Virus genome (UHGV): UHGV-0135234
DNA from: a virus
Strand: one strand, 5' to 3'
DNA: 36,533 nucleotides
Made by a program: the position numbers and the translations under genes. Positions 9,760-30,461 of the stretch are shown here, piece after piece. The notes below the pieces were generated by a model that made no database searches, had not been told where the DNA came from, and saw only the letters and a list, made by a program, of their open reading frames with translations. How positions within the stretch are numbered: position 1 is the stretch's first letter; every line of letters begins with the position of its first letter.

Positions 9760-9808
9760 CATGTTACGAGTAGATTATGCATGATGAATTTGATGGGTTT
9801 TGAATACT

Positions 9809-9834
9809 GCCGCCAACTATGGCGGCTTTATTTT
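9809..9834 (+). terminator. rho-independent terminator upstream of terS
   Basis: gccgcc-aactat-ggcggc followed by TTTATTTT. Confidence 0.65.
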
Positions 9835-9845
9835 GCATGGTACTA

Positions 9846-9860
9846 TTACCACAACGGTAA
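9846..9860. promoter_or_regulatory. operator palindrome TTACC-N5-GGTAA upstream of terS
   Basis: ttaccacaacggtaa; preceded by TACTAT -10-like hexamer; direct repeat CTATTACCAC at 9843 and 9861. Confidence 0.55.
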
Positions 9861-9877
9861 CTATTACCACGGTGGTT

Positions 9878-12615: not shown

Positions 12616-12692
12616 TGGCGTGGCATGCAGGATTCGAACCTGCGACCAACCGCTTAGAAGGCGGTTGCTCTGTCCAACTGAGCTAATGCCAC
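12616..12692 (-). tRNA. tRNA-Arg (anticodon UCU)
   Basis: 77 nt GTGGCATTAGCTCAGTTGGACAGAGCAACCGCCTTCTAAGCGGTTGGTCGCAGGTTCGAATCCTGCATGCCACGCCA; 7-bp acceptor stem, D-arm GCTC/GAGC, anticodon loop CTTCTAA, T-loop TTCGAAT, encoded CCA. Confidence 0.9.
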
Positions 12693-13126: not shown

Positions 13127-13333
13127 ATGTGCATGGGTAGCTCACCATCAGTGCCTGCAACACCAGAAGTTCAGGCAGCACCACAGGAGCAGGATGCCGC
13201 CGTTGTTGATGCCCGCGACGAAGAAACTCGTCGCCGTCGCGCTGCTGCTGGTCGTAGTTCTACGCTGCTTACCGGTTCTCAGGGCGACACATCAACCGCT
13301 AATACCAGCGGTAAAACGCTACTTGGTCAGTAA
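13127..13333 (+). CDS. hypothetical small protein preceding portal
   Basis: 68 aa; same initiation context (cggagtcattga + ATG) as the portal gene. Confidence 0.4.
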   Translation: MCMGSSPSVPATPEVQAAPQEQDAAVVDARDEETRRRRAAAGRSSTLLTGSQGDTSTANTSGKTLLGQ

Positions 13334-13347
13334 CCGGAGTCATTGAA

Positions 13348-15027
13348 ATGGCGGAAACAACTAAAGAGCGATTGAACAAACAGTTCGCACAACTTGAAAG
13401 CGAGCGTCAGTCGTTCGAGCCGCACTGGCGCGAGTTGAGTGATTACATCAACCCGCGTGGTTCCCGCTTTCTGACTTCTGAGGTCAACCGTAACGATCGA
13501 CGCAATACACGTATTATTGATTCGACCGGGACTATGGCGGCGCGCACTCTCGCCAGCGGCATGATGTCAGGCATCACAAGCCCCGCGCGTCCGTGGTTTC
13601 GCCTGGCTACGCCAGATCCTGAAATGATGGATTATGGCCCTGTTAAGTTGTGGCTTGAGGCGGTGCAGAACCGCATGAACGATATGTTCAATAAGTCGAA
13701 TCTCTACCAGTCTCTTCCGCAGTTATACGGAAGCCTCGGCACATACAGCACCGGTGCAATGGCGGTACTGGAGGATGACGAGGACATCATTCGCACAATG
13801 CCATTCCCGATAGGCAGTTACTACCTGGCTAACTCACCTCGTGGCAGTGTGGACACCTGTTTTCGCAAGTTCTCTATGACTGTTCGTCAGCTTGTTCAGG
13901 AGTTCGGGCTAAATAACGTCAGCGAATCTGTAAAAAGCATGTGGGAAAGCGGCACCTACGAGAAGTGGATTGAAGTGATGCATTCGGTTTACCCGAACAT
14001 TGACCGCGATACATCGAAGCTGGATAGCAAGAACAAGCCATTCAAATCGGTTTATTACGAGGTTGGCGGCGATAACGACAAGTTGTTGCGTGAGTCCGGA
14101 TTCGATGAGTTTCCAATTATGGCTCCGCGCTGGGAAGTTAACGGCGAAGATGTTTATGGATCATCGTGCCCGGGTATGCTGGCGCTTGGACCTGTTAAGG
14201 CATTGCAGCTTCTCCAGAAGCGCAAGTCGCAGTTGATTGATAAAGCCACCAATCCGCCGATGGTTGCTCCGACTTCCCTCAAGAATCAGCGCGCCTCCCT
14301 TCTTCCTGGCGACATCACGTATATCGATCAGATTACTGGTCAGGATGGCTTCAGGCCTGCTTATCTGGTTAACCCCAGTACAGCAGATTTGGTGGCAGAC
14401 ATTCAGGACACTCGTCAAATCATTAACAGCGCCTACTTTGTCGATCTGTTCATGATGTTGCAGAACATCAATACCCGCTCGATGCCTGTTGAAGCGGTGA
14501 TCGAAATGAAAGAAGAAAAACTTCTGATGTTGGGGCCGGTTCTGGAGCGTCTGAACGACGAATGTCTTAATCCTCTCATTGACCGCGCTTTCTCGATGAT
14601 GGTGCGTAAAAACATGCTGCCGCCACCGCCTGACGCGATGGAAGGCATGCCCCTGAAGGTCGAATACATTTCCGTCATGGCTCAGGCGCAGAAGTCTATC
14701 GGCCTGTCCAGTCTGGCGTCCACGGTTAACTTCATTGGTCAACTTGCGCAAGCGAAACCAGAAGCTCTCGACAAACTCAACGTTGATCAGGCGATCGATG
14801 CATTCGCTGATATGTCCGGAGTGTCTCCAACCGTCATTGTTCCGCAGGAACAGGTTGAGCAGGCTCGCCAGCAACGGGCACAGCAGCAACAGCAGCAACA
14901 AATGATGGCGATGGGGATGGCGGCGGCACAGGGTGCCAAGACGCTAAGCGAAGCTAAAACTTCGGATCCGAGTGTTTTGTCAGCTATGGCGAATGCAGTT
15001 AGTGGTCAGGGTGGGCAATCACAATGA
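13348..15027 (+). CDS. portal protein (T7 gp8-like head-to-tail connector)
   Basis: 559 aa; C-terminal Gln/Met/Ala-rich tail (QQRAQQQQQQQMMAMGMAAAQG) like the T7 portal C-terminus; position after terminase. Confidence 0.85.
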   Translation: MAETTKERLNKQFAQLESERQSFEPHWRELSDYINPRGSRFLTSEVNRNDRRNTRIIDSTGTMAARTLASGMMSGITSPARPWFRLATPDPEMMDYGPVKLWLEAVQNRMNDMFNKSNLYQSLPQLYGSLGTYSTGAMAVLEDDEDIIRTMPFPIGSYYLANSPRGSVDTCFRKFSMTVRQLVQEFGLNNVSESVKSMWESGTYEKWIEVMHSVYPNIDRDTSKLDSKNKPFKSVYYEVGGDNDKLLRESGFDEFPIMAPRWEVNGEDVYGSSCPGMLALGPVKALQLLQKRKSQLIDKATNPPMVAPTSLKNQRASLLPGDITYIDQITGQDGFRPAYLVNPSTADLVADIQDTRQIINSAYFVDLFMMLQNINTRSMPVEAVIEMKEEKLLMLGPVLERLNDECLNPLIDRAFSMMVRKNMLPPPPDAMEGMPLKVEYISVMAQAQKSIGLSSLASTVNFIGQLAQAKPEALDKLNVDQAIDAFADMSGVSPTVIVPQEQVEQARQQRAQQQQQQQMMAMGMAAAQGAKTLSEAKTSDPSVLSAMANAVSGQGGQSQ

Positions 15028-15320
15028 CAGATTACGAAGACGATAAACTGAAAGAAGAAAACGCCCGTAAGCAACGTGACATGGCGCAGCGTGAAATTGA
15101 TGACATTCGCTTTGTCATGAGCAGTGAACAGGGGCGTCGCGTTGTCTGGTCGGTGCTGGAGAAAGGCCGTGTGTTTTCCGCTATCTCACCGATGGACGCT
15201 ATGGCAATGGCATTTAATGAGGGGCAACGCAATCTGGCGCTGGAACTGTTTCAGCGCGTTATGGCGCATTGCCCTGAACAGTATTTGAAGATGGCCAAAG
15301 AGGCCAGTGAACAGGAGTGA
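15024..15320 (+). CDS. hypothetical head-assembly protein
   Basis: 98 aa; ATGA-coupled between portal and scaffold. Confidence 0.55.
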   Translation: MTDYEDDKLKEENARKQRDMAQREIDDIRFVMSSEQGRRVVWSVLEKGRVFSAISPMDAMAMAFNEGQRNLALELFQRVMAHCPEQYLKMAKEASEQE

Positions 15321-15322
15321 TC

Positions 15323-16018
15323 ATGAATTTATTTGAGCGTTTGCTGTATCGCCGTCTTTGCAATGAGCAACCAGTCGATGGTGGAGCAGCTCCGGCTGCG
15401 TCAGAACCGTCAGCGCCTGCAGGTGATAACCCTGCTCCAGTTGGTGATCCATCACAACAGGAAGGTGATAAGCCACAACCTGTTGCTGATGGCGATAAAC
15501 CTGCTGATGACAAAAAGCCTGAAAACGATAAGCAGGATGAAAAAAAGGACGGCGATAAACCAGAGGGTGCGCCTGAGAAGTACGAGTTTCAGGCAGCCGA
15601 AGGCGTAGAGCTGGATACAGAAGCGTTGAAGGAATTCGAGCCGGTGGCGCGAGAACTTAACCTGACCAACGAGCAAGCGCAAAAGCTGGTTGATGCTTAT
15701 CCGAAGATTCTGGCAGGTGTTCAGCAGCGCCAGGCAGAAGCCTGGCAGAAAACAACCGAGCAGTGGGCTGCGGATGTAAAAGCTGACAAAGAAATCGGTG
15801 GCGACAAGTTGATTTCTAACCTTAGCGCCGCACAGCGTGCGCTTGACCAGTTCGGGACACCTGAACTCAAAGAATATCTGAACACCACCGGGCTGGGTAA
15901 TCACCCTGATCTGGTCAAAACGTTCGTGAAAATTGGAAAGGCGATGTCTGAAGATGGCATGGTCACCGGTGGTAATGAAGGCCAGCGTAGTGCGGCCGAA
16001 GTGCTCTATGGCAAATAA
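15323..16018 (+). CDS. scaffolding protein (putative)
   Basis: ORF 15317..16018 (GTG); ATG at 15323 with AGGAG SD; acidic, low-complexity Pro/Asp/Lys-rich N-region; directly precedes capsid gene. Confidence 0.65.
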   Translation: MNLFERLLYRRLCNEQPVDGGAAPAASEPSAPAGDNPAPVGDPSQQEGDKPQPVADGDKPADDKKPENDKQDEKKDGDKPEGAPEKYEFQAAEGVELDTEALKEFEPVARELNLTNEQAQKLVDAYPKILAGVQQRQAEAWQKTTEQWAADVKADKEIGGDKLISNLSAAQRALDQFGTPELKEYLNTTGLGNHPDLVKTFVKIGKAMSEDGMVTGGNEGQRSAAEVLYGK

Positions 16019-16026
16019 GAGAGGAA

Positions 16027-17019
16027 ATGACAATGGCTGTTAAAGGCTTAACTGCGCTAACGCTGGCTGACTGGGGTAAGCGCGTCGATCCAAACGGGAA
16101 AGTCGATAAGATTATCGAGCTTCTCGGTCAAACTAACCCGATCCTTCAGGATATGCCTTTTGTCGAAGGGAACCTTCCTACCGGACACCGAACCACCATT
16201 CGTTCTGGTTTACCTTCAGCTACCTGGCGTTTGCTGAACTATGGCGTACAGCCAAGCAAATCAACCACAGTGCAGGTAACCGATTACGTTGGCATGCTGG
16301 AAACCTATGCTGAAGTCGATAAGTCACTGGCTGATCTGAACGGCAATACCGCCGAATTCCGCCTGTCTGAAGACCGCGCATTTATTGAAGCGATGAATCA
16401 GCAGATGGCGCAGACGCTGTTTTATGGTGATTCCAGCGTTAACCCTCAGCAGTTTATGGGACTGTCCTCCCGCTATTCCAGCCTGTCTGCGGGTAATGCT
16501 CAGAACATCATTGATGCTGGTGGCACGGGTACAGATAACACCTCAATCTGGTTAGTGGTGTGGGGCGAAAACACCGTGCATGGCATCTTCCCGAAAGGGC
16601 AGAAGGCTGGCATTCAGATGGAAGATAAAGGCCAGGTGACACTGGAAGATGCTAATGGCGGCAAGTACGAAGGCTACCGTACCCATTACAAATGGGACAA
16701 CGGACTTGCTCTGCGTGACTGGCGTTATGTTGTTCGCATTGCAAACATCGATGTCAGCAATCTTTCAGAACCTTCCTCTGCCGCAAATATTGCGAAGTTG
16801 ATGGTTAAAGCACTGCATCGCATTCCAAATCGTGGCATGGGTCGCCCGGTGTTCTACATGAACCGCACTGTAGGCCAGGCTCTTGATCTGCAATCTCTGG
16901 AGAAAACATCTCTGGCGATCAGCGTAAAAGAGACAGAAGGCGAGTGGTGGACTTCATTCCGTGGTGTACCAATCCGTGAAACTGATGCGCTTCTGGAAAC
17001 AGAAGCCCGCGTGGTGTAA
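16027..17019 (+). CDS. major capsid protein
   Basis: 330 aa; strong SD GAGAGG; follows scaffold; followed by stem-loop 17036..17055. Confidence 0.8.
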   Translation: MTMAVKGLTALTLADWGKRVDPNGKVDKIIELLGQTNPILQDMPFVEGNLPTGHRTTIRSGLPSATWRLLNYGVQPSKSTTVQVTDYVGMLETYAEVDKSLADLNGNTAEFRLSEDRAFIEAMNQQMAQTLFYGDSSVNPQQFMGLSSRYSSLSAGNAQNIIDAGGTGTDNTSIWLVVWGENTVHGIFPKGQKAGIQMEDKGQVTLEDANGGKYEGYRTHYKWDNGLALRDWRYVVRIANIDVSNLSEPSSAANIAKLMVKALHRIPNRGMGRPVFYMNRTVGQALDLQSLEKTSLAISVKETEGEWWTSFRGVPIRETDALLETEARVV

Positions 17020-17070
17020 CGCCTGTTATTAACCTGTGGGTCGTAACAGACCCACTAATGGAGAAAGAAG

Positions 17071-17508
17071 ATGATCACCGACAAACTGTTGATGTTCTCC
17101 GAAGCTCAGGCGGTTACGAATACCGCGGCTTCTACTGACGTAATCGATCTCGGTCCAATTGACGGAAAACGTCGTGATATTGGCGTTGGTTACCCGCTTG
17201 AGTTTTGGGTGCTGGTTAACGAAGCCGCCACGGCAAGTGGTGAGGCAACTGTAAACATCCAGTTGCAGACGAGTGAGAATAACAGCTCTTGGACCACTAT
17301 TTATGATAGTGGTGCGTTGGCAAAGGCCACCCTGACAGCAGGTAAGCGAGTTGTTTCTGCAAAGGTGCCAGCCGGTGTTCAGCGATATCTGCGTGTTAAC
17401 TACTCCGTCGCAACTGGCCCACTAACGGCCGGCAAATTCACTGCGGGTATCAGTCTGGATGTTGATGCCAATACGCCGTATCCGATCCGCTCAAAAGTAA
17501 CTGGTTAA
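17071..17508 (+). CDS. putative capsid-associated structural protein
   Basis: 145 aa, Thr/Ala/Val-rich beta-type sequence; GGAGAAAG SD. Confidence 0.55.
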   Translation: MITDKLLMFSEAQAVTNTAASTDVIDLGPIDGKRRDIGVGYPLEFWVLVNEAATASGEATVNIQLQTSENNSSWTTIYDSGALAKATLTAGKRVVSAKVPAGVQRYLRVNYSVATGPLTAGKFTAGISLDVDANTPYPIRSKVTG

Positions 17509-17518
17509 GGTGATATCG

Positions 17519-17854
17519 ATGTCAGGTGAGAAACCAAGATACCGCGTTCTGCGCCTCTCTCATATCCATAACACTCTGTGGCCGGAGGGGGCAGAAATCG
17601 AATACGAAGGTGAGCCTGGTAGCGCACTGGAACCTGTTAACGATGCAGCCAGACAGGCAAAAGCAAAAGTTGCAGGAAAGGTGTCAATGGCAGCAACCAG
17701 CACCAAAATCATCAACGATGTGTCAGATGATGGTGAACTGGATAAGCTCCGTGAAGAGTACGAATTGCTCTTTAACGAGAAGCCACACCATAACGCTAAA
17801 GCCGAAACGCTCCGCGAGAAGATCGCAGATAAGCGTAAAGAACTGGGCGTGTAA
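17519..17854 (+). CDS. hypothetical virion-module protein
   Basis: ORF 17510..17854 (GTG); ATG at 17519 with AAGGTGA SD. Confidence 0.5.
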   Translation: MSGEKPRYRVLRLSHIHNTLWPEGAEIEYEGEPGSALEPVNDAARQAKAKVAGKVSMAATSTKIINDVSDDGELDKLREEYELLFNEKPHHNAKAETLREKIADKRKELGV

Positions 17855-17872
17855 GCCTCGCGAATCAGACAA

Positions 17873-17892
17873 GGGGCTTCGGCCCCTTTATT
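17873..17892 (+). terminator. terminator-like hairpin
   Basis: ggggc-ttcg-gcccc followed by TTTATT. Confidence 0.45.
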
Positions 17893-17904
17893 GCAGGAGT
17901 GTAT

Positions 17905-18228
17905 ATGGAACTCGTAAACCTTAAAACCGGCACTGACAGCTACCAGGATGAGAGCGGAGAAACCAGAACTCGCGATGAATACCCGTGGGGGCTGTGCATC
18001 ACTCTTAATAACGACACATTGAATAAGCTGAAGGCGCAACCTCAGGGCGTCGGAACAGAAGTGATGATAACGGCAAAGGCTGTTATTCGAGGCCTGTCTG
18101 CCAGAGAAACTGACGATGGTGTTAATCGCAGCGCCGATCTGCAGATCACTGATATGGCGATCGCTCCTGTTTCCGGGGATGTAGAAAAATCAGCGGCTGA
18201 AACTCTGTACGGCAATGGGGGGGAGTAA
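17905..18228 (+). CDS. hypothetical virion-module protein
   Basis: ORF 17899..18228; ATG at 17905 with CAGGAG SD. Confidence 0.5.
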   Translation: MELVNLKTGTDSYQDESGETRTRDEYPWGLCITLNNDTLNKLKAQPQGVGTEVMITAKAVIRGLSARETDDGVNRSADLQITDMAIAPVSGDVEKSAAETLYGNGGE

Positions 18229-18833
18229 TGGCCTCTGTAGTAGAGATCTGCAATCGTGCGTTGTCCAATATTGGCAACAGCCGCAGCATTAACAGCCTGA
18301 CGGAAGCCAGCAAGGAAGCGGGGGAATGTTCGCTGCACTTTGAGGCCTGCCGTGATGCTGTTCTTTCTGATTTTGACTGGAACTTTGCTACCAAACGCGT
18401 GGCGCTTGCAGATACGAGCAATCCACCGCCTGACTGGGAATACGCGTACCAGTACCCGTCAGATTGTCTGCGCATTACTGAAATTATGCTTCCTGGTGTA
18501 CGCAATCCAACAGCAGCAATGCGCGTTCAGTACGAAGTTGGTGCAGACACCAACGGAACAGGAAAGTTGATCTACACAGACCAGCCTCAGGCATGGCTCA
18601 AGTATGTCTCTCGCGTTACAGATGTGAACATGTTTGATGCCATTTTTATGGAGGCGTTGGCCTGGCGTCTTGCGGCAGCCATTAACATGGCGCTGACTGG
18701 GAATGCAGACCTCGGTACGTTTGCCCTCAATATGTACAATCGCGTGATTCTTAGTGCTGGCTCGCATAGCCAGAATGAATCACAGGAACCACAGCCACCG
18801 GTTGACGAGTTTACCATTGCGAGGTTGTCCTGA
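18228..18833 (+). CDS. tail tubular protein A-like (T7 gp11-like adaptor)
   Basis: 201 aa (T7 gp11 is 196 aa); N-terminal pattern resembles gp11; precedes a gp12-sized gene. Confidence 0.5.
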   Translation: MASVVEICNRALSNIGNSRSINSLTEASKEAGECSLHFEACRDAVLSDFDWNFATKRVALADTSNPPPDWEYAYQYPSDCLRITEIMLPGVRNPTAAMRVQYEVGADTNGTGKLIYTDQPQAWLKYVSRVTDVNMFDAIFMEALAWRLAAAINMALTGNADLGTFALNMYNRVILSAGSHSQNESQEPQPPVDEFTIARLS

Positions 18834-21304
18834 TGGCTATCAGTTGGATCCAGCCCAGCTTTGCCGGTGGTGAGATTGGACCGTCGTTGTACGGTCGTAT
18901 CGACATGGCGAAGTACCAGGTGGCATTGCGCAAGTGCGATAACTTTATCGTGCGGCAGTATGGCGGCGTTGAGAATCGACCTGGTACGCGTTTTGTCGGT
19001 GCCGCCAAATACCCAAATCGGAAATGCCGCCTGATCCCGTTCCAGTTCTCGACGGTTCAGACCTATGCTCTGGAGTTCGGACACCAGTACATGCGCGTTA
19101 TCAAAGATGGTGCGTTGGTGCTGAACAGCAGCAATGTTATTTATGAAATTGCCACGCCATATACTGAAGCTGATCTGTTCCGAATTAAATTCACGCAAAG
19201 CGCCGACGTGCTTACGCTGGTTCACCCGGCATACCCGCCGAAAGAGTTGCGCCGATATGCTCATGACAACTGGCAACTGGTTGATGTGGTAACGAAGAAC
19301 GGGCCATTTGAAGATATCAATATTGACGAGTCAGTGACGGTTTATGCCAGCGCCAGCACCGGGACAATTACGTTAACGGCAAGCGCCTCTATTTTTGGCG
19401 CGGAGCAGGTAGGCAAATTGTTCTATCTGGAACAGCCTGCAGTGGATTCAGTGCCGGTATGGGAAACCAGTAAGAGTACGTCGATTGGCGATATTCGCCG
19501 TGCAGACAGTAACTACTATCGCGCCGTTACAGCAGGCAAAACAGGTACTTTGCGCCCTTCGCATACAGAAGGCACATCATGGGATGGCTGGGGCGGATCC
19601 GGTGATGATGATACTGGCATTGAGTGGGAATATCTGCACAGTGGTTTTGGCATTGCCCGTATCACTGCTGCAAATGGAACTACTGCAACTGCCGAGGTGA
19701 TTTCCTATATCCCTTCGCAGGTAGTTGGCGAGGATAATGCCAGCTATAAATGGGCTAAATATGCCTGGAACAGTGTTAATGGTTATCCTGGCACTGTTGT
19801 TTATTATCAACAACGTCTTTACTTCGCCGCATCGACTGCGTTCCCTCAGACTATCTGGGCCAGCCGTACCGGGGATTATAAGGATTTTGGCAAAAGCAAT
19901 CCTACGCAGGATGACGACAGAATTATCTACACCTATGCCGGGCGTCAGGTTAATGAGATCCGCCACCTGATTGATGTCGGTTCGCTGGTGGCACTGACTT
20001 CCGGAGGTGAGTACGTCATCACCGGCGACCAGAACAAAGTGTTAACCCCATCATCATTTGCATTCAGCTCTCAGGGATCAAATGGCTCTAGCAATGTCCC
20101 ACCAATTGCCGTGGCGAATATTGCTCTGTTCGTCCAGGAGAAAGGCAGTGTTGTCCGTGATCTGGCCTACTCATTCGATGTTGACGGCTATCAGGGGAAC
20201 GACCTGACCATCCTTGCCAATCATCTTTTTCAGAAGCACAGCATTGTTGACTGGTGCTTCTCTATTGTCCCTTACTCCAGCGCCTTCTGCATTCGTGATG
20301 ACGGTAAATTACTGGTGATGACCTATTTGCGTGATCAGCAGGTTTTTGCATGGGCACCACAATCCAGTACCGGAAAATATGAAAGCACATGCAGTATCAG
20401 CGAAGGAAATGAAGATGCGGTGTATTTCGTCGTTAACCGAACCGTTAACGGGCAAACAGTGAGATACATCGAGCGACTGTCCAGCCGTTTATTTACCAGC
20501 GATGAAGATGCTTTCTTTGTTGATTCTGGCCTTAGCTATGATGGAAGAAATACGTCTGACAGAACGATGACCATCACTGGTGGTTCTGGCGAATGGGATT
20601 ACCGCGCGGAATATACAATCAGTATTTCTGGTGGTGCGTACTTCACCAGTAGTGATGTCGGTGCGCAACTACAGTTCCCTTATACCGGAACTGATCCTGA
20701 TACTGGCGATGAAGTGTCAAAAGAATTACGTTGCGACATTATTTCTGTAACCAGCAACACCGCTGTAGTGGTTCGTGCTAACAGGAACGTCCCGCCATCC
20801 CTCAGGAATGTGGCCACCACGAACTGGCAGATGGCGCGCCGGGCATTTGGCGGCTTGTCTCATCTTGAAGGTCAGACCGTAAACATCCTCTCTGATGCGA
20901 ACGTGGAACCACAGAAAGTAGTTTCCGGAGGTGCCGTCACGCTGGAATCACCGGGGGCTGTAGTGCACATCGGCCTGCCAATAACTGCTGAATTCGAAAC
21001 ACTGGATATCAACATTAACGGACAGGAAACGCTGCTGGACAAAAAACAGGTGATCCCATCCGTTACTCTGGTTGTGAATGCCAGCCGCGGCATCTGGGCG
21101 ACTACGCCCGGCGGTAAATGGTACGAATATCCACAGCGTGAATTCGAGTTCTACGATGATCCTGTTGATGACGCTACCGGAAAAGTAGAAGTGAAACTGG
21201 ACAGTAACTGGGGCAAAAACGGACGTGTAAGAATCCGTCAGCTTGACCCGTTGCCGCTGTCTGTTCTTGCCGTTATTCCTCGTCTTACTGTTGGGGGATT
21301 CTGA
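18833..21304 (+). CDS. tail tube/nozzle protein (T7 gp12-like by size and synteny)
   Basis: 823 aa (T7 gp12 794 aa); ATGA-coupled to upstream gene. Confidence 0.6.
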   Translation: MAISWIQPSFAGGEIGPSLYGRIDMAKYQVALRKCDNFIVRQYGGVENRPGTRFVGAAKYPNRKCRLIPFQFSTVQTYALEFGHQYMRVIKDGALVLNSSNVIYEIATPYTEADLFRIKFTQSADVLTLVHPAYPPKELRRYAHDNWQLVDVVTKNGPFEDINIDESVTVYASASTGTITLTASASIFGAEQVGKLFYLEQPAVDSVPVWETSKSTSIGDIRRADSNYYRAVTAGKTGTLRPSHTEGTSWDGWGGSGDDDTGIEWEYLHSGFGIARITAANGTTATAEVISYIPSQVVGEDNASYKWAKYAWNSVNGYPGTVVYYQQRLYFAASTAFPQTIWASRTGDYKDFGKSNPTQDDDRIIYTYAGRQVNEIRHLIDVGSLVALTSGGEYVITGDQNKVLTPSSFAFSSQGSNGSSNVPPIAVANIALFVQEKGSVVRDLAYSFDVDGYQGNDLTILANHLFQKHSIVDWCFSIVPYSSAFCIRDDGKLLVMTYLRDQQVFAWAPQSSTGKYESTCSISEGNEDAVYFVVNRTVNGQTVRYIERLSSRLFTSDEDAFFVDSGLSYDGRNTSDRTMTITGGSGEWDYRAEYTISISGGAYFTSSDVGAQLQFPYTGTDPDTGDEVSKELRCDIISVTSNTAVVVRANRNVPPSLRNVATTNWQMARRAFGGLSHLEGQTVNILSDANVEPQKVVSGGAVTLESPGAVVHIGLPITAEFETLDININGQETLLDKKQVIPSVTLVVNASRGIWATTPGGKWYEYPQREFEFYDDPVDDATGKVEVKLDSNWGKNGRVRIRQLDPLPLSVLAVIPRLTVGGF

Positions 21305-21768
21305 TGATCGATGTTCAAATTATTCCCGCCACCGAAGAGCATCTTCAGATGATTTTGCCGGATGTTCGTCAGGCTGATATTGACGAACTGTATGCGGTAT
21401 CGCTGATGACTACCGAAGATGCGCTGCGTGTTGGTCTTCGCACTGCGACTATGGCCTGGTCAGGATTTGCGAACGGAGAACTGGTAACCATGTTTGGCGT
21501 ATCTCCGGCGTCAATGATCGGTGGCAATGGTACGCCCTGGCTGGTAGGAACCAGCCGTATTGAAAAATATCAGAAGACATTTCTGCGCCACTGCCGCCCT
21601 GTATTGCAGCAGATGCTGGCAGTTTATCCGCGCCTGGAAAACTACGTCGACGAGCGAAACCATGTTGCCAAAGCATGGCTGCACTGGCTTGGATTCAGGC
21701 TTGAAGAAGCCGCGCCTTATGGTGCTCTTGGTCTTAATTTCCACAGATTTCACATGGAGAGAAAATAA
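21304..21768 (+). CDS. internal virion protein (gp13 position)
   Basis: 154 aa; synteny only. Confidence 0.5.
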   Translation: MIDVQIIPATEEHLQMILPDVRQADIDELYAVSLMTTEDALRVGLRTATMAWSGFANGELVTMFGVSPASMIGGNGTPWLVGTSRIEKYQKTFLRHCRPVLQQMLAVYPRLENYVDERNHVAKAWLHWLGFRLEEAAPYGALGLNFHRFHMERK

Positions 21769-22313
21769 TGTGCGATCCGGTTATTGCTGGTGGCGCAATG
21801 CTCGCCATGAGTGGCATTCAGGCATACACCCAGTACCAACAGGGAAAGTATGCCTCGAAGGTTGCAGAAGCGAACGCAGATATAGCCACAGCTCAGGCAA
21901 ATGATGCAATAAACAGAGGTAACGCTGAAGCTGAGCAACGGCGCAGAGAGACCCGACAGCGGCTTGGTACACAGGCGGCGACAATGGGGGCTACCGGCGC
22001 TGATTTATCTACAGGTAACGCGCTGGATATATTTGGCGACACTGCCCAGTTTGGCGCTCTTGATTCTCTGACGACGGTGAATAACGCGCAACGCGAGGCT
22101 TACGGTTATCAGGTTCAGGCTGCCAACTATAAAGCAGAAGCCAGTTCAGCCCGTAAACAGGGGAATGTGGGAGCAGCAACAACATTGCTCACTGCGCCTC
22201 TGAAGGCATACGGTGCGTACCAGATGTTTGGTGGGACGTGGAGTCCGTTTACTCAAAGCACCCCTGCGCCAATCGGAGCAGCAGCAGGAACCAGATTACC
22301 CGGAGGATTATAA
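21768..22313 (+). CDS. internal virion protein (gp14 position)
   Basis: 181 aa; Ala/Gly/Gln-rich. Confidence 0.55.
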   Translation: MCDPVIAGGAMLAMSGIQAYTQYQQGKYASKVAEANADIATAQANDAINRGNAEAEQRRRETRQRLGTQAATMGATGADLSTGNALDIFGDTAQFGALDSLTTVNNAQREAYGYQVQAANYKAEASSARKQGNVGAATTLLTAPLKAYGAYQMFGGTWSPFTQSTPAPIGAAAGTRLPGGL

Positions 22314-24826
22314 TGCCAGTCGTACCAACAGTATCCGGACGTCAGGTTGAGAGCCGTGGAGTTCAGTCAGCAGGCTTGCAGACGTTTTCTCAGCCAGGTA
22401 TTGGTGATGCTTTTGTTCGGGCAGGGGCAGAGGCAATTGATGTTTTGGGGCAGGCAAAACAGCGTGCCAATATTGCCTTGGCTCAGGAGGCATCTCTTAA
22501 CCTCAGTCAGATAAGCAGTGATTTGCTGAATAATCCTGAAACAGGATTGCTTAACCTGAAAGGGAAAAATGCTATTGGAAAAGGCCATGAGTATACGCAG
22601 CAGTTTGATGCTCAGGTCGAACAATTGGCTATGTCGCTGCCGGATGAACAGGCTCGTAATGCTTTCATGCAGCAGGCGCAGCAGCAGCGCATTCAGTTCA
22701 CTACGCAGGCCGGGCGACACGAGATAGGGCAAATTAATGCCTACGAAGAAGGCCAGTTTCAGGCGACACTGCTGAACAATGGTAAAAATGCCGCAGCATT
22801 GTATGGCGACAACGCCGCATACGTATTGGCTAACAAACAAACTTTCCAGCAAATTGAGGAGTACGGTGTTGCACATGGCTGGAGCAACGAGCAAATCCAG
22901 GCCAAGAAAATCGAGTTTAAAGAGAAGGTTGCTGATGCTGCATTGTCCCAGTGGTCGGCAAACAATGCGACCGCATTCATCCAAAGTAATGGCGAGTTAA
23001 GTGATACTGCTGCTGGAGCTCGCCGTGCTGTAGCAGATAGTGACTCTTCCGAGCGTGCCCGTGGCATACGCAACAATAACCCAGGAAATCTCGAATACAG
23101 CAAAACTAATCCGTGGGTAGGCCAGACCGGTGATGATGGTCGATTTGCTAAATTCGAAACACCTGAACACGGGATTCGTGCATTAGGGCGGAACCTGATG
23201 TCGTATCAGAGGCAGGGTATTGATACCGTCAGCGAGATAATTAATCGCTGGGCACCGCCTGCTGATAAAAATGACACTATGTCGTATATCAAAGCAGTGT
23301 GCGAACAACTTGGCGTTTCTGCTGATGAGCCTCTCGATGCATCTAATCCTGATACCCTGAAGGCGCTTTGTGCAGCCATTATCCATCATGAGAACGGTAG
23401 CCAGCCATACAGTGATCAGCAGTTAACTGCTGGTGTCAGTGCAGCACTTGGTTTATCAACAATTCCAACCAACACCAAACGCTATACCGGTAATGCAGCA
23501 TTCGATGCGGCATCTCCTGAGGCGCAGGCAAGTTTTATGCGACAGGCGGATCAACTGCGTCGGCAGCAGCAGGCTGAATATAAAACGATGATTGACAGCC
23601 AGGTTCGCGATGCGACAGCTGCGTATATGCGTGGCGTTGAATTTCCTAACCCACCTGGTGAGGCTGATTTTATTGCAGCTTATGGAGTAAGAGAAGGAAA
23701 CCTGCGATATACCGAGTTCAGAAATACGCAAATCGCCGGACAGTATATAGGCTCTTTCCGCAACATGCCGACAAGCAGCATTACAGCATATGTTGAGCAA
23801 TTACGCCCGGATACTGGTGAGACAGGGGAGGGTTATGCGGCACGAGCCGCTCTTTATGACAACGTTGTGTCGGCTGCAAGTCAGGTGATAAAGCAGCGAC
23901 AGGCTGATCCTGTACAGTTCTCTCTTGCCGCCGGACAGACAAAGCCTATCGACATGAGCAATAAGGATAACTTTGGACAGAGCGTTGCCTTGCGTGCTGC
24001 TCAGGTCAGTGACCTTGCTAAGTCATATGGCACTCCACTGACGTTCTTTTCCAAAGACGAGGCCAATCAGATCGGTGTTTTCTTTCGTGATGCGCCCGTT
24101 TCCCAACAGGCAGCATATCTCGATACCATCAGGCAGAGCACTGGTGGTGGGCAGGTGTATATGTCAGCACTACAGCAGATCAGTGCCAACGCTCCATCTG
24201 CTGCCGTTGCCGGGATACTGATGGATAAGCCAGGTGGTATTTTGGCAGAAAAAAACTGGTTTAATCCGGATGTTTCCGTGTCTCCTGAAACCGCTGCGCA
24301 GACAATTCTTGCTGGAGCGGCGGCTCGTAAAGGTACTGATGATGCGAAAGGTATTCCGATGCCTAAAGATGCTGATCTTCGCCTTGAGTTTTCTGACATG
24401 GTGAAGGATGCATTTGCTGGTGACGCTCAGGGGGCATCAATGGCATACGAGATCGCAAAGGATTATTACGCTGGTGTGATGGCGAAAAAAGGCGTGGTAT
24501 CAGGCGAAATTGACAATGATGTCTGGAAACAGGCTGTTAACGTAGCTACAGGTGGCGTGCATGACTATAACGGAATGGGGAATGTCCTTTTGCCGTGGGG
24601 AATGTCTGCAGAGCAATTCGATAAGCAGGTTAATCAGGCTTGGAATGAACAAGTTGTCGGCTCCGGGATAAAAACACCGCCTGGTCAGTATGGTTTGCAA
24701 AGTTACGGCGATAGTCAGTACCTGGTGAAACTTGGTACTGGTTATCTGCTGAAAGATGATGGTTCTCCCGTTGTTCTTAATCTGACACAGAAACGTCAGA
24801 GATTCTCCGGAGATATTCCGCAATGA
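22313..24826 (+). CDS. large internal virion/ejection protein
   Basis: ORF 22238..24826; ATG at 22313 with GGAGG SD overlapping upstream stop; 837 aa; conserved block GIRNNNPGNLEY...WVGQ...RFAKF...GIRALGRNLMSYQRQG. Confidence 0.65.
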   Translation: MPVVPTVSGRQVESRGVQSAGLQTFSQPGIGDAFVRAGAEAIDVLGQAKQRANIALAQEASLNLSQISSDLLNNPETGLLNLKGKNAIGKGHEYTQQFDAQVEQLAMSLPDEQARNAFMQQAQQQRIQFTTQAGRHEIGQINAYEEGQFQATLLNNGKNAAALYGDNAAYVLANKQTFQQIEEYGVAHGWSNEQIQAKKIEFKEKVADAALSQWSANNATAFIQSNGELSDTAAGARRAVADSDSSERARGIRNNNPGNLEYSKTNPWVGQTGDDGRFAKFETPEHGIRALGRNLMSYQRQGIDTVSEIINRWAPPADKNDTMSYIKAVCEQLGVSADEPLDASNPDTLKALCAAIIHHENGSQPYSDQQLTAGVSAALGLSTIPTNTKRYTGNAAFDAASPEAQASFMRQADQLRRQQQAEYKTMIDSQVRDATAAYMRGVEFPNPPGEADFIAAYGVREGNLRYTEFRNTQIAGQYIGSFRNMPTSSITAYVEQLRPDTGETGEGYAARAALYDNVVSAASQVIKQRQADPVQFSLAAGQTKPIDMSNKDNFGQSVALRAAQVSDLAKSYGTPLTFFSKDEANQIGVFFRDAPVSQQAAYLDTIRQSTGGGQVYMSALQQISANAPSAAVAGILMDKPGGILAEKNWFNPDVSVSPETAAQTILAGAAARKGTDDAKGIPMPKDADLRLEFSDMVKDAFAGDAQGASMAYEIAKDYYAGVMAKKGVVSGEIDNDVWKQAVNVATGGVHDYNGMGNVLLPWGMSAEQFDKQVNQAWNEQVVGSGIKTPPGQYGLQSYGDSQYLVKLGTGYLLKDDGSPVVLNLTQKRQRFSGDIPQ

Positions 24827-26625
24827 GTTACTTTGGCCTTAATCCAGTAAACCAGAATCAGCAGCTTGACGAAGCAGCATCAAATCCAGCTGGCTTTAAC
24901 AGCGATGTTGGTTTTTTCGACAATGCTGTAGGAGCGGCATTGTCTGGTTTGTACTCCGGGCTGGTGGCAAAGCCAGATCAGTTGCTATGGGCAGGGATGG
25001 ATAAAATCGTATCCCCGATTGCTCAGTTTGTTAACGAAAACACCTCGCTCAATGATACTTCAGTTTCATACATTGCCGAGCAGAGAAAACTAGCAGAGCA
25101 GCAGGTTAAGCGGCTGACGCCTGATGCCGCGACAACTGGAACCGCTGGGCAGGTTCTTTATGGGTTGTTCGATATGGGCGGGCAGGCTGTTGTTGGTACA
25201 ACGCTCGGTGGTCCGGTCGGAGGTGCTGCGGCGGTAACTTCGCTACAGGGTTTTTCTGAGTTTGAACGGCTGACAGCACAGGGTGTTGATTTCAGGACGG
25301 CGCAGGAAGCGGGATTAGTGCAGGGCATTACTGCTGGTGCCGGAACGCTGATCCCTATAAGCCTCGGGTTACGTGCTGGTGGTGCGCTGGCGGAAGGTGT
25401 GGCGGCTCAGCTTGCACGGACGGGTGAAAGTTCAGTGCGACGCGCCGCAGCAACAGCAGTACGTGCAACGCCAGATATTGCCTATGCCGCAGGTACAAAT
25501 ATTGCGTTCGGTATGGCACAGCGTGGGCTTACTGCAAAAACGCTTCGTGATGGTGGCTATAGCGAAATGGCTAATCAGTATGATGTGTTGGATCGACAGG
25601 CAATTGCTATTGATGCTGTTCTTGGAGTGGCGTTTGGTGGTGTCGGCAGATTTATTAACTCTCGCGGCGAGTCTACAAGCGCACCAAATTTTTCACCAGT
25701 TGATGTCGATGCTGCACTGGCGGCGAATGCCGCTCATCATGCTGAAATTGATATTGCTCCCGGTGTGCCGATCAACGTGCTTTCGCGTAATTCGCACATT
25801 CAGGCTCTGCGAAAAGCCATGTCTGATGTTAGCCAGGGGAGACCTGTAGACGTTGCCAGCATTGTTGAGTCTGCATCTTTCAGTGAAATTCCTGGGCGCA
25901 AGAGTCTGCTTTCTCAGGCAGTTAATGAGGCTCTGTCATCTGTAGATGATGGAGTAACGGCGCGCGCTATAGAAAATCGGTTGCTTGAAGAACAGGCCGC
26001 GCAGCTTTTGCCGCGTGGCGATAGACAGGTTTACCAGTCTGAAATCGCTAATAGCCAACGAATTATTGAAAATCTCACTGAACAGCGCGCACAAATTCTT
26101 GCAGAAGAGCCAACCGGTAGCGGTAAAGCTTTGTCTCGTGCTCGATCAGATAAACAGGCCAGACTTCGCGATATTGATCAACGAATCCGGCAGGCACAAG
26201 AACGCCTGGAGTTTTCCCGTAACGCGTTGGCACCGCACGAGCCTGGCGGTCAGTTTTTTGAAGCTCGAGCAGAACTGGCACGACGACAGCAGGCAGAAAG
26301 TGAACTTAATGCTCAGGCTGTTTCATTCTATAAAACAGCAGAGGTCAGGACGCCAGACGAAGTAGCTCCTTTTGAGCCCGGTAAGATATTGCAACAGACA
26401 GAACAAAAAATGATGGCAGATCCGGCAGGAGATATTGATCTGCGTATAGCTGAAGACTCGCTGCTTGAATCTCCGGACATGATAATCACCGTGCTGGATG
26501 ATGATGGTAATCCACAATCGCGCAGTGCGCGTGAAGTACTGGATGAAGCGAACAGGGAAAGTGAGCAGGCAATACAGGATTCCAGCCTGTTTGATGTTGC
26601 TGTGGCGTGTTTCTTGAGAGGTTAA
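24823..26625 (+). CDS. large internal virion/ejection protein
   Basis: 600 aa; Gly/Ala-rich hydrophobic segments; ATGA-coupled. Confidence 0.65.
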   Translation: MSYFGLNPVNQNQQLDEAASNPAGFNSDVGFFDNAVGAALSGLYSGLVAKPDQLLWAGMDKIVSPIAQFVNENTSLNDTSVSYIAEQRKLAEQQVKRLTPDAATTGTAGQVLYGLFDMGGQAVVGTTLGGPVGGAAAVTSLQGFSEFERLTAQGVDFRTAQEAGLVQGITAGAGTLIPISLGLRAGGALAEGVAAQLARTGESSVRRAAATAVRATPDIAYAAGTNIAFGMAQRGLTAKTLRDGGYSEMANQYDVLDRQAIAIDAVLGVAFGGVGRFINSRGESTSAPNFSPVDVDAALAANAAHHAEIDIAPGVPINVLSRNSHIQALRKAMSDVSQGRPVDVASIVESASFSEIPGRKSLLSQAVNEALSSVDDGVTARAIENRLLEEQAAQLLPRGDRQVYQSEIANSQRIIENLTEQRAQILAEEPTGSGKALSRARSDKQARLRDIDQRIRQAQERLEFSRNALAPHEPGGQFFEARAELARRQQAESELNAQAVSFYKTAEVRTPDEVAPFEPGKILQQTEQKMMADPAGDIDLRIAEDSLLESPDMIITVLDDDGNPQSRSAREVLDEANRESEQAIQDSSLFDVAVACFLRG

Positions 26626-26630
26626 ATTAA

Positions 26631-29105
26631 ATGAGACAGGAATGTATACAAGCGGTCCAGCAGGCGGCGCAGCGCACGTTAACGGCGCGAGAAATACAGA
26701 ACATTGAAGACCGCATTTATCGAAATATGCGCTCCATTGCTCGTGATGACCCGATGTCGTGGCGACAACTTTCCGAATCAGAACGGTTGTATCGTGCAGC
26801 ACAATTGGCATCTGAAGAATTACAGCGAGAAGCGGCATTAAAGAAACGTCGTGTGGCCCTCACTATAGCCGCACGTCAGAGATTGGATAAATTTATCAAT
26901 AGCTATCAAGGGGCTGATGGGAAACTTGGCGCTCTTAACCGTACTATTGCTTTTAATGCAGACGGTAAATCGAATTTCCTCTCTGTTGAATCCAGAACAA
27001 AAGCCACCCGTGATTATGCATTGAGTCAATTGCAGGAGGCATTCGAAGCAGTTGATCCTCGCTTTTTTGGTCTGTTTGAAGATGAAGCGGGCGTACGTGA
27101 CCTGGTATATGAAATGCGGGGGCAAAATACTGGCAATGCTAAAGCAAGAAAAGGTGCTAAGGCGTGGAGAGAAGTTACAGAGCTGCTGCGCCGCCGGTTT
27201 AATGATGCTGGTGGGGACATTGGCTATCTCGAAAACTGGGGGATCCCTCAACATCATTCTATGGAAAAGGTTGGGGCGGTATCAAAGGATAAGTGGGTTA
27301 GCGATGTTATAGGTAAGCTGGATCGCAAATATTATACCCGAGCCGATGGACAACTGATGAACGATGCCGAGTTGTCTGAATTTCTTGGAGAGGCTTATAA
27401 CACGATCGCTACTGGTGGGCTGAATAAGCTTACTGATACCGGAATGCGAATTTCCGGCGCACGTGCTAACCGTGGTAATGCATCACGACAGATACATTTC
27501 AAAGATGCAGATTCCTATCTGCAATATCAGCAACTTTATGGCGATCGCTCTCTATGGGAAATCATGGTCGGTCACCTGGAAGGTATCAGTAAAGATATTG
27601 CGCTGGTGGAAACATATGGCCCAAACCCCGATCATGTTTTCCGCTCCCTTCTTGATCAGGTTAAGGCAGAAACGGCAACAGCTAACCCGAGTAAAACCGG
27701 TAGCGTCGAGCGTCTGGCGAACAAAACAGAGAACTTGTACAACTTTATTTCCGGAAAAACACAGCCTGTAGCGAATCCGCACATCGCGCGATGGTCTGAC
27801 AATATCCGCAACTGGCTGGTTGCCAGCAGACTCGGATCCGCGTTGCTGTCATCGTTCTCTGATCTTGGAACCATGTATCTGTCTGCGAAGGTTACCAACC
27901 TTCCAATGAACCAGTTATTTCGCAACCAGCTTGAAGCTATGGACCCAACGAACCGTACAGAACTTGCGCGGGCGCGCCGCGCTGGCCTGGCGATGGAATC
28001 TCTACTTGGCAGCGTTAACCGCTGGGCGATGGATAATATGGGGCCGTCTGTGTCTCGTTGGGCGGCAACGGCGGTAATGCGTGCCAGTGGGCTTACAGCA
28101 TGGTCAGATGCGCACAAGCGCGCCTATGGCGTAACCATGATGGGAAGCCTGGGAGAAGTAGTGTCACGGACACCAGACCTTCGTAGCCTCGATGACTCTG
28201 ATTTTCGTATCCTGAAAAGCAAAGGGATTACTGACACAGACTGGAGCGTATGGAAGCTGGCGCAACAGGAGGACTGGGGGAACGGTAATAATACGATGCT
28301 GACACCGGAAAGCATTATGCGTATCCCTGATTCAGCAGTTAAACATCTTGGTGAGCCTGAACGCGTGAAATTTGAGGCAATGCGTAAACTGCTCGGTGCC
28401 GTAACTGAAGAAGTTGATATGGCTGTTATTACACCGGGCGCACGTGAACAGATGTTCGTAGGGTCTGGTCTTCAGCGTGGAACATGGAAAGGTGAATTAA
28501 CGAGAAGTGTTTTCCTGTTTAAATCGTTCCCTATCTCGGTAGTTATGCGTCACTGGCATAGAGCTATGGGGATGCCGTCTGCTGGTGGGCGTGCGGCATA
28601 TATAGCAACGTTTTTAGCAAGCACAACCATGCTTGGTGCTCTTTCCATGCAGATTACTGATCTTATTAATGGGAGAAATCCAAAAGAAATGACCGGTGAC
28701 AACATGGTTAAATTCTGGATAAATGCATTTTTAAAAGGTGGTGGGGCAGGGTTGTATGGTGATTTTCTTTTCTCTGACCACACCAGGTACGGGAGCGGCG
28801 CACTAGCGTCGATGCTTGGCCCGGTAGCTGGTCTGGTTGATGACGTAGTGAAGATTGCTCAGGGCATACCGTTAAATGCTGTGGAAGGGAAGAATGAGCA
28901 GACTGGTGGTGATCTGGTTAAGCTTGGGAAAGGTTTGATGCCTGGTGCGAATCTCTGGTACTTGAAGGCGGCTCTCGATCACATGATCTTTAATCAGATG
29001 CAGGAGTATTTTTCACCAGGCTATTTGCGTAAAATGGAGCAACGTTCGAAGAAAGAGTTTAACCAGACATACTGGTGGCGACCTCAGGATGTCACTCCGC
29101 AATAA
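26631..29105 (+). CDS. large internal virion/ejection protein
   Basis: 824 aa; last large protein of virion block. Confidence 0.65.
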   Translation: MRQECIQAVQQAAQRTLTAREIQNIEDRIYRNMRSIARDDPMSWRQLSESERLYRAAQLASEELQREAALKKRRVALTIAARQRLDKFINSYQGADGKLGALNRTIAFNADGKSNFLSVESRTKATRDYALSQLQEAFEAVDPRFFGLFEDEAGVRDLVYEMRGQNTGNAKARKGAKAWREVTELLRRRFNDAGGDIGYLENWGIPQHHSMEKVGAVSKDKWVSDVIGKLDRKYYTRADGQLMNDAELSEFLGEAYNTIATGGLNKLTDTGMRISGARANRGNASRQIHFKDADSYLQYQQLYGDRSLWEIMVGHLEGISKDIALVETYGPNPDHVFRSLLDQVKAETATANPSKTGSVERLANKTENLYNFISGKTQPVANPHIARWSDNIRNWLVASRLGSALLSSFSDLGTMYLSAKVTNLPMNQLFRNQLEAMDPTNRTELARARRAGLAMESLLGSVNRWAMDNMGPSVSRWAATAVMRASGLTAWSDAHKRAYGVTMMGSLGEVVSRTPDLRSLDDSDFRILKSKGITDTDWSVWKLAQQEDWGNGNNTMLTPESIMRIPDSAVKHLGEPERVKFEAMRKLLGAVTEEVDMAVITPGAREQMFVGSGLQRGTWKGELTRSVFLFKSFPISVVMRHWHRAMGMPSAGGRAAYIATFLASTTMLGALSMQITDLINGRNPKEMTGDNMVKFWINAFLKGGGAGLYGDFLFSDHTRYGSGALASMLGPVAGLVDDVVKIAQGIPLNAVEGKNEQTGGDLVKLGKGLMPGANLWYLKAALDHMIFNQMQEYFSPGYLRKMEQRSKKEFNQTYWWRPQDVTPQ

Positions 29106-29114: not shown

Positions 29115-29528
29115 ATGAAGGAATTATTGCTGTTATCGGTATTTTTGATATCCGCTTGCTCGACATCCTATGATGTTTATGACGGTGTTGATAAGGCATA
29201 TTGCGACAAAGTTAAAATGGATTTTTCTCTTGCCAAGACGGCGAAGGATAGTTGTATTGATCACTACGTCAAGACTTATACCAAGCCAGCCTCATCGGCA
29301 TCTGATATTGCTGAAGGTGCTGTGTTTGAGTGTAACAAGGTGATATCCATCGCAGCGAGTTCTTCATACGATGCTGCTGTATGTGCAATGGCTGAAAGAA
29401 ACGGCATGTCAGTGCAAAAAATTAATAGCATGATAAGCAGTAATGACGAAGCCAAAATAAGAACTGATATCAGCTCGGTGAAAAAAGATGCCATGAACAG
29501 AGTTGTAAAATATCAGTCATCTTTATAA
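29115..29528 (+). CDS. lipoprotein (candidate superinfection-exclusion moron)
   Basis: 137 aa; signal peptide MKELLLLSVFLISAC with lipobox ISAC, Ser at +2; AT-rich; followed by palindrome and terminator. Confidence 0.6.
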   Translation: MKELLLLSVFLISACSTSYDVYDGVDKAYCDKVKMDFSLAKTAKDSCIDHYVKTYTKPASSASDIAEGAVFECNKVISIAASSSYDAAVCAMAERNGMSVQKINSMISSNDEAKIRTDISSVKKDAMNRVVKYQSSL

Positions 29529-29543: not shown

Positions 29544-29544
29544 A

Positions 29545-29568
29545 GGCCGCTTTCGCGGCCTTGTTTTT
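29545..29568 (+). terminator. rho-independent terminator
   Basis: ggccgc-tttc-gcggcc followed by TTGTTTTT. Confidence 0.65.
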
Positions 29569-29728: not shown

Positions 29729-29800
29729 TGTGAAATTTCCATCTATAAGCCACCTCAATGTGGCGTCAATGAGTGTAGCACTGACTTTTGTTTCGCCCAC

Positions 29801-29821
29801 AAAAAAGCCCGCAGCGCGGGC
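29801..29821 (-). terminator. rho-independent terminator after cargo gene B
   Basis: Minus strand gcccgc-gct-gcgggc followed by TTTTTT. Confidence 0.6.
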
Positions 29822-30261: not shown

Positions 30262-30281
30262 GGAAAACTCCTGATGTGCTT

Positions 30282-30449: not shown

Positions 30450-30461
30450 ATCGCGCCTCCT

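Follow-up and report, generated by a model that had tools for sequence, protein, structure and literature searches.

Evidence that viral genome UHGV-0135234 carries the late operon of a phiV10-like Uetakevirus with a T7-like virion module

The viral genome UHGV-0135234 (36,533 nucleotides; "the window" below means this whole stretch) carries at positions 13348-29105 a block of virion genes whose sizes and order recall those of T7, together with early genes of lambda type. A preliminary description of the window, made from the sequence alone, had read it as a mosaic temperate short-tailed phage. We asked what kind of phage the block belongs to and how far its likeness to T7 extends. Our data indicate with high confidence that the region represents a late (virion) operon belonging to a phiV10-like Uetakevirus, that is, to the epsilon15 group of temperate Enterobacteriaceae podophages, and they support the reading of its virion module as T7-like.

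We found that the block is 97.7% identical in nucleotide sequence to phiV10 over 100% of its length and 97.7-97.9% identical, at full length, to ZX5 (vB_EcoP_ZX5), phiv142-3 and PAS61; with HEMP4 included, the five phages lie at 97.2-97.9% across the whole block. Enterobacter phage Tyrion is 81.5% identical and epsilon15 about 75%, the latter in parts only. Both phiV10 and epsilon15 belong to the genus Uetakevirus by record classification. The 15 proteins encoded in 13127-29105 are 96.5-100% identical to phiV10 p06-p20 and stand in the same gene order. The same 15 are collinear with epsilon15 gp3-gp17, each having a counterpart there at 27-88% identity. The identity to phiV10, like the family and fold assignments given below, was established in this analysis.

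Outside the block, both arms of the window match the same set of Uetakevirus phages. The left (early) arm shows 97.9% identity over the matching 62% of the arm, and the right arm is 90.7% identical to phiV10 over the matching 45% and 98.4% identical to HEMP4 over 91%. Because both arms match the same phages as the block, the pairing of these early genes with this virion module is the normal state of the genus. The block was found in 570 of 5426 complete E. coli genomes, with identity up to 98.8%, and the element most likely sits as a prophage in the E. coli chromosome. ZX5, the best phage match, has a short tail in electron micrographs, forms lysogens by integrating at the 3' end of guaA and is induced spontaneously (PMC9782041). 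The phage genus is thus already known, in its usual form, and has been sequenced, imaged and classified for about 20 years.

All open reading frames (ORFs) named in the preliminary description exist on the + strand, in the order and with the lengths given there (201, 823, 154, 181, 837, 600 and 824 amino acids (aa) for the genes after the capsid). Four extra head genes that it had omitted are interspersed: a 98-aa gene follows the portal and precedes the "scaffold", and three more (145, 111 and 107 aa) separate the capsid from the 201-aa gene. The virion genes are as follows.

13348..15027, + strand: portal, 559 aa, T7 gp8 family (Pfam PF12236, E 1.6e-187)
15024..15320, + strand: Bbp19-like protein, 98 aa, without T7 counterpart (PF25181, E 2.8e-17)
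15323..16018, + strand: "scaffold"-position protein, 231 aa (233 with the start at 15317; PHROG 458 "protease")
16033..17019, + strand: major capsid protein, epsilon15 gp7 family, 328 aa (330 with the start at 16027; PF20911, E 5.4e-149)
17071..17508, + strand: Bbp16-family capsid cement protein, 145 aa (PF21190, E 5.9e-49; 46% identical to the Carin-1 gp42 cement)
17519..17854, + strand: 111-aa protein, epsilon15 gp9 homologue (PHROG 590; 100% identical to phiV10 p12)
17905..18228, + strand: capsid staple protein, epsilon15 gp10 family, 107 aa (PF21628, E 1.1e-51)
18228..18833, + strand: head-to-tail adaptor, 201 aa, T7 gp11 fold (AlphaFold2 (AF2) model, pLDDT 85.7; Foldseek)
18833..21304, + strand: predicted tail nozzle, 823 aa, T7 gp12 position (PDB sequence matches)
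21304..21768, + strand: probable gp13-like internal virion protein, 154 aa (hhalign against T7 gp13)
21768..22313, + strand: predicted gp14-like ejection (core) protein, 181 aa (Pfam PF24072, T7_gp14)
22313..24826 (ATG at 22313), + strand: 837-aa ejection protein at the gp15 position, lysozyme-like domain at about residues 249-398
24823..26625, + strand: 600-aa ejection protein, N-terminal module at the gp16 position (its N-terminus matches the N-terminus of giant proteins)
26631..29105, + strand: 824-aa ejection protein, homologue of the C-terminal half of T7 gp16 (family-profile hhalign)
32001..34190, + strand: tailspike, with a gp17-like N-terminal anchoring domain (about residues 1-170) and a swapped receptor-binding part

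The genes from 17905 to 26625 overlap by 1-4 bases and therefore form one tightly packed operon. Sizes in the window and in T7 (window/T7) are 559/536, 231/307, 328/345, 201/196 and 823/794 aa from the portal to the nozzle position, followed by 154/138, 181/196, 837/747 and, for the last two genes taken together, 600 + 824 = 1424/1318 aa. NCBIfam searches with ten of the virion proteins gave no significant family and one chance match far below the cut-off.

The portal is a member of the T7 gp8 family. Its PF12236 (Head-tail_con) match covers model positions 2-488 of 489, it matches the Carin-1 portal 8ck0_A at 5.7e-179, and it is 99.1% identical to phiV10 p07. The T7-like Q/M/A-rich C-terminus of the preliminary description is confirmed (...QQRAQQQQQQQMMAMGMAAAQGA... 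in the window and ...QKQQKMAQQSMQMGMDNGAAALAQGMAAQ... in T7 gp8), and in a local hhalign comparison of portal and gp8 only this C-terminal tail was aligned. The 231-aa protein is named "protease" in PHROGs and RefSeq and is 48% identical to Carin-1 gp44; we found no peptidase family for it in Pfam or NCBIfam. It is plausibly the scaffold, given that it occupies the T7 scaffold position and that the neighbouring 328-aa capsid protein is short, which we took as too short for a scaffolding domain of its own.

The 201-aa protein is a gp11-type adaptor according to its fold model. In Foldseek the model matched the Carin-1 connector (8ck1_E, 1.2e-16), the LME-1 adaptor (3.8e-9) and T7 gp11 (7box_M, 1.7e-6); across the T7 gp11 chains E ran from 1.7e-6 to 4e-5 and TM from 0.53 to 0.59, and every match at E <= 0.001 was a podophage adaptor. 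The family alignment is shallow (Neff 2) and did not recover T7 gp11 by hhalign or by PDB profile search. The 823-aa protein matched the Carin-1 "Tail Nozzle" (8ck1_A) at 2.9e-217 and the LME-1 orf18 nozzle at 1.3e-15, and a direct hhalign comparison with T7 gp12 was negative. It has been reported that the portal, adaptor, nozzle and fibre N-domain of LME-1 and Carin-1 are T7-like in structure and gene order and have no sequence similarity to T7 (PMC12407071). The 823-aa protein would thus be the gp12 counterpart only transitively, through that report and the solved Carin-1 and LME-1 nozzles.

We next consider the two small internal proteins. The 154-aa protein aligned to T7 gp13 in hhalign with a probability of 52% (E 1.5e-4), the best in its row. 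Its match to Pfam T7_Gp13 had an E of 0.088, below the cut-off, and the Carin-1 homologue of the protein reached 8.7e-4 against T7 gp13. We conclude that the 154-aa protein is probably gp13-like. For the 181-aa protein the PF24072 match (31.2 bits, cut-off 27) and the PGAP name of its orthologue, "virion core protein, T7 gp14 family", make a firm prediction that it is gp14-like.

The large ejection proteins depart from T7 in their arrangement. In the 837-aa protein the lysozyme-like domain matched PDB entries 9vvp_L (6e-38) and the endolysin 7q47 (2.9e-17), and residues 249-364 aligned to the N-terminal lytic domain in the T7 gp16-family profile (gp16 4-97) with a probability of 81% and an E of 1.3e-5. 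By the size and order on which the preliminary description relied, this protein would correspond to gp15; the two agree in position and size only, and hhalign of the family against T7 gp15 gave a probability of 0.5%. When homologues of the 837-aa protein were searched for, all sequences recovered were at least 95% identical, too uniform for a useful profile. Most of its E. coli relatives are 935-aa variants, 98-100% identical over about 70% of the query in the best local alignment, suggesting that an insertion of about 98 aa is common in this ejection protein.

The 824-aa protein belongs to a family of 5141 cluster representatives. We compared a 61-sequence profile of this family with a T7 gp16 profile of nine members drawn from diverse Autographiviridae. 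Residues 275-671 aligned to gp16 758-1150 with a probability of 78.4% and an E of 1.7e-5, and an FKSF motif is common to both; against T7 gp16 alone the family gave a probability of 20% and 1.1e-3. For the 600-aa family, hhalign against the T7 virion proteins gave no signal. Sequence searches of the PDB returned nothing for either the 600-aa or the 824-aa protein, and a profile search of the PDB for the 824-aa family gave only noise. The two genes are connected by several giant proteins of 1707-2913 aa that match the 600-aa protein at the N-terminus and the 824-aa protein at the C-terminus. Since single giants match both, and since Carin-1 has one 2854-aa gene at this place, we regard the 600-aa and 824-aa proteins as the split form of one gp16-position protein. 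Neither matched Carin-1 gp32 by BLASTP, and the link to it runs only indirectly, through the giant P0313.

Five of the giants (P0261, P0263, P0269, P0313 and P0362) have long, mutually dissimilar middles between the 600-like N-terminus and the 824-like C-terminus. Inspection by eye of the middles found apparent transglycosylase and HExxH metalloprotease motifs. Judging from these sequences, the middle sections may be ejected enzymes or effectors.

A tailspike with a gp17-like N-terminal domain was said to follow the ejection genes. The domain is there, and T7-type podophages stood at the top of its fold search; direct succession is not, as the spike lies outside 13348-29105 and 2.9 kb downstream, beyond a 137-aa ORF, a hairpin and a reverse-strand block. 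Only residues 1-166 are shared with the spikes of phiV10, at 67% identity, and of epsilon15, to whose N-domain that of the window is 70% identical. For its receptor-binding part the spike agrees with HEMP4, at 98.4% nucleotide identity. The C-terminal part of the spike had no match among solved structures in a PDB sequence search.

Several results weigh against a T7-like reading of the module in a temperate phage. BLASTP of all virion proteins of the window against T7 gp8-gp17 found no significant match; any relationship must therefore be ancient, and can be tested only by profiles and folds. In the hhalign matrix of window families against T7 virion proteins, a probability of at least 50% was reached only by 154-aa with gp13 and by the 837-aa and 824-aa families with the gp16 family, and these gp13 and gp16 probabilities are moderate (52-81%). 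Portal with gp8 and spike with gp17 were weakly the best in their rows, and the capsid scored the same with gp10A as with gp13. There was no signal for 201-aa with gp11, 823-aa with gp12, 181-aa with gp14, 231-aa with gp9, 837-aa with gp15, or for the 600-aa protein. The links for these six come from fold search, Pfam, solved relatives or position. On the side of lifestyle, the window ends about 1.7 kb short and so contains neither an integrase gene nor att sites; an orthologous prophage, which borders yfgI, carries its integrase at the end missing here. We therefore draw the temperate status from the repressor and from the near-identical relatives.

Taken against these points, the likeness to T7 consists of a shared order (portal, scaffold position, capsid, adaptor, nozzle, gp13, gp14, large ejection proteins, and a fibre or spike with a gp17-type N-domain) and of family, fold or profile support for gp8, gp11, gp13, gp14, gp16 and the gp17 N-domain. 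The tracking of T7 gp11 to gp16 by size and order holds for the gp11, gp13, gp14 and gp16 modules and transitively for gp12, whereas a one-to-one correspondence fails for the last three genes. There are also differences. The window has the four extra head genes (Bbp19-like, Bbp16-type cement, 111 aa and gp10-type staple), its gp16-type lytic domain lies in the gene at the gp15 position with the remainder of gp16 split over two genes, and its spike is separated from the operon. The terminase is upstream and unrelated to gp18/gp19, and the phage is temperate, with a repressor and recombination genes and without a phage RNA polymerase. The largest ORF of the early region encodes a 371-aa Ead/Ea22 and DUF551 protein. 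Membership in the Autographiviridae was rejected, as there is no single-subunit RNA polymerase, the terminase is upstream of the portal and a repressor is present.

Known relatives place the module more closely. Phages of the phiV10 group (with ZX5, phiv142-3, PAS61 and HEMP4) also have the early region, the tRNA-Arg and the lysis cassette in common with the window. phiV10 itself differs in having an O-acetyltransferase gene, which is absent after the spike of the window, and p21 (46 aa), which the 137-aa lipoprotein ORF replaces. Salmonella phage epsilon15 is the group's type member and a model phage for cryo-electron microscopy. Its portal, adaptor, nozzle and gp14-like protein are 81%, 85%, 88% and 78% identical to those of the window, whereas its capsid, cement and staple are only 36-43% identical and its spike and serotype-conversion genes differ. 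Its counterpart of the 600-aa protein has 634 aa and 32% identity and that of the 824-aa protein has 918 aa and 28% identity, both being longer than in the window. Carin-1, a Cobetia phage with a solved virion (8CK0/8CK1), has recognisable proteins at 33-51% identity in the order terminase, portal, Bbp19-like, 246 aa, capsid, cement, connector, nozzle, 139 aa and 185 aa, and then lysozyme protein, giant protein and spike. It differs in having one 2854-aa protein instead of 600 + 824 aa, in a spike that directly follows the giant and in the presence of head-spike genes; a temperate lifestyle is not described for it in the literature examined. LME-1, a temperate Legionella phage (PDB 9EFK), has the T7-type portal, adaptor, nozzle and fibre N-domain (PMC12407071), and its adaptor and nozzle match the window proteins directly at 3.3e-5 and 1.3e-15. 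It is distant (18-25% identity in structural alignments) and has another host, capsid decoration and set of early genes.

The lambda/Rac-like character of the early region, as first described, is borne out by RecT, a RecE-like nuclease, a repressor with a cro-position ORF, an O-like gene with iterons and a loader of the lambda P family. These genes and the terminase are listed here.

1400..3159, - strand: RecT and RecE-like PD-(D/E)XK nuclease (PF03837, E 2.1e-44; PF12684 (DUF3799), E 1.1e-22)
3764-4348, - strand: repressor (HTH_3, E 1.2e-9)
4503-4733, + strand: cro-position ORF, 76 aa, divergent from the repressor (ORF list; layout as phiV10 p40/p41)
5100..6697, + strand: O-like initiator (HTH_36 and DnaT domains), then lambda P family loader (Pfam)
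9800..10474, + strand: terminase small subunit (Pfam Terminase_2, E 1.4e-29), upstream of the portal, unlike T7 gp18
10471..11946, + strand: terminase large subunit (TerL), 491 aa, intact (99.4% identical to phiV10 TerL)

The initiator falls outside the Pfam family of lambda O. Within its gene lie six iterons at 5354-5564 with the core CCCAAAAACGGGA and a spacing of 18-63 bp; the iterons encode a stretch of repeated "NG..PKNG" peptide. TerL is 95% identical to that of epsilon15 and 53% identical to that of Carin-1 and has no similarity to T7 gp19.

The presence of T7-type virion parts alongside RecT, a repressor, an O-like initiator and lambda P could mean that the phage is a novel chimera, in which a lytic T7-like virion module was recently recombined with a lambdoid early region. 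We consider this very improbable. The same early and late combination occurs at 96-98% identity in phiV10, ZX5, PAS61, phiv142-3 and HEMP4 and distantly in epsilon15, and Carin-1 likewise pairs the module with RecT and exonuclease genes. The lack of sequence-level similarity to T7 makes the relationship ancient, there is no phage RNA polymerase, and the terminase stands in the lambda/P22 position. The GC content is fairly even, which neither supports nor excludes recent joining. As the early region has counterparts in other Uetakevirus genomes, a recent chimera is excluded in practice. Of the claim of a mosaic temperate short-tailed phage, therefore, the temperate short-tailed part stands on the repressor and on near-identical relatives such as ZX5, and the part that implied a new mosaic does not, both arms being of the same genus.

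Still less credible is that the module is P22-like or of another non-T7 podovirus type, or that the phage is long-tailed with its tail genes beyond the window. Some homologues of the spike N-domain are named "head-binding protein", a P22 term, and a review groups the epsilon15 ejection proteins with those of P22 (PMC8954989). However, Pfam places the portal in the T7 gp8 family and not in the P22 one, the fold searches with the adaptor and the spike N-domain were led by T7-type podophages, and the sizes in the epsilon15 row of that review disagree with the epsilon15 record. The row (Table 1, "Epsilon 15") gives gp11 (229 aa), gp12 (499 aa) and gp13 (708 aa) as gp14/15/16-like, while gp11, gp12 and gp13 of the epsilon15 RefSeq record have 201, 825 and 154 aa. 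The sizes in the row resemble those of a P22-like phage, and the conclusions on epsilon15 ejection may rest on another genome. As for a long tail, a PHROG "tape measure" family does match the 837-aa protein, but this lone match is limited to the lysozyme-like domain (residues 193-421). Family searches of the window, which spans terminase to lysis genes, found no tape measure, tube or sheath gene, as the preliminary description had stated. A defective prophage remnant that no longer makes particles is somewhat less far-fetched than either of these and still improbable: the close prophage NZ_CP033635 has a frameshifted terminase and pseudogenes, and the window is without its integrase end, but all structural genes including TerL (491 aa) are full length, the lysis genes are intact, and the genes are 96.5-100% identical to those of plaque-forming phiV10.

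As the late operon of a phiV10-like Uetakevirus, the block would encode a particle with an epsilon15-type capsid (gp7-family coat, gp10-type staple and Bbp16-type cement) and a T7-type portal. Its tail would consist of a gp11-type adaptor ring, the nozzle at the gp12 position and spikes anchored through the gp17-type N-domain, and its interior would hold a core of ejection proteins of 181, 837, 600 and 824 aa. In epsilon15, cryo-electron microscopy (cryo-EM) has visualised the portal, core and hexameric hub (PMC12391199 and studies cited there), and the core proteins of T7 are ejected to form a channel across the envelope (PMC8954989). On infection, the variable C-terminal part of the spike would bind, and probably cleave, O-antigen. 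The nozzle would then open and the core proteins would be ejected. The gp14-like protein would enter the outer membrane, the lysozyme-like domain of the 837-aa protein would cut peptidoglycan, and the 600-aa and 824-aa proteins, jointly equivalent to T7 gp16, would complete the envelope channel for DNA. Stoichiometries and the order of ejection we infer by analogy with T7 and with cryo-EM and electron tomography of epsilon15.

A further, tentative idea is that the ejection apparatus of epsilon15, Carin-1 and LME-1 is a rearranged T7 ejectosome, with the gp16-type lytic domain at the gp15 position and a modular remainder of gp16 that is either a single giant of 1700-2900 aa with assorted enzyme domains or, in the window, split into 600 + 824 aa. 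We hold this to be possible and on balance rather doubtful. Such a mapping may be absent so far from the literature.

The remaining features lie around the operon.

12616..12692, - strand: tRNA-Arg(TCT) (ARAGORN; also in phiV10 at 2853-2929)
13127..13333, + strand: 68-aa protein (100% identical to phiV10 p06, 88% to epsilon15 gp3 and 46% to Carin-1 gp47)
29115..29528, + strand: 137-aa putative lipoprotein, last gene of the operon (signal peptide, lipobox LISAC; PHROG 8691)
29544..29561, + strand: terminator-like hairpin closing the structural operon (seven-pair GC-rich stem, then a T-run)
29567-31823, - strand: reverse-strand block with ORFs for 77-aa, 193-aa, 279-aa BRO-N (anti-repressor position) and 91-aa proteins

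The tRNA-Arg(TCT) is located between the terminase and portal genes and is absent from epsilon15. In the phiV10 record a coding sequence, p04 (2672-2923), is annotated over the tRNA-Arg site and no tRNA is annotated. Matches to the left arm were found in 64 Synechococcus phage records, possibly through the tRNA-Arg. At the position of the 137-aa ORF, phiV10 has the 46-aa p21, a membrane protein, instead; from its sequence, the 137-aa protein may be an accessory or exclusion lipoprotein. The reverse-strand block is flanked by a bidirectional terminator-like hairpin at 29806-29822, and its content varies among relatives. After the spike, at 34187-34483, lies a 98-aa membrane-like ORF without a Pfam family match.

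For a genus already known, and a copy that shares about 98% identity with isolated phages, mapping the ejection proteins module by module is only a modest addition. From its swapped receptor-binding part, the spike is predicted to have an O-antigen specificity other than the O157 of phiV10. A practical gain is in annotation: E. coli genes that are mostly "hypothetical" can now be named as adaptor, nozzle, gp13-like, gp14-like and gp16-type ejection proteins.

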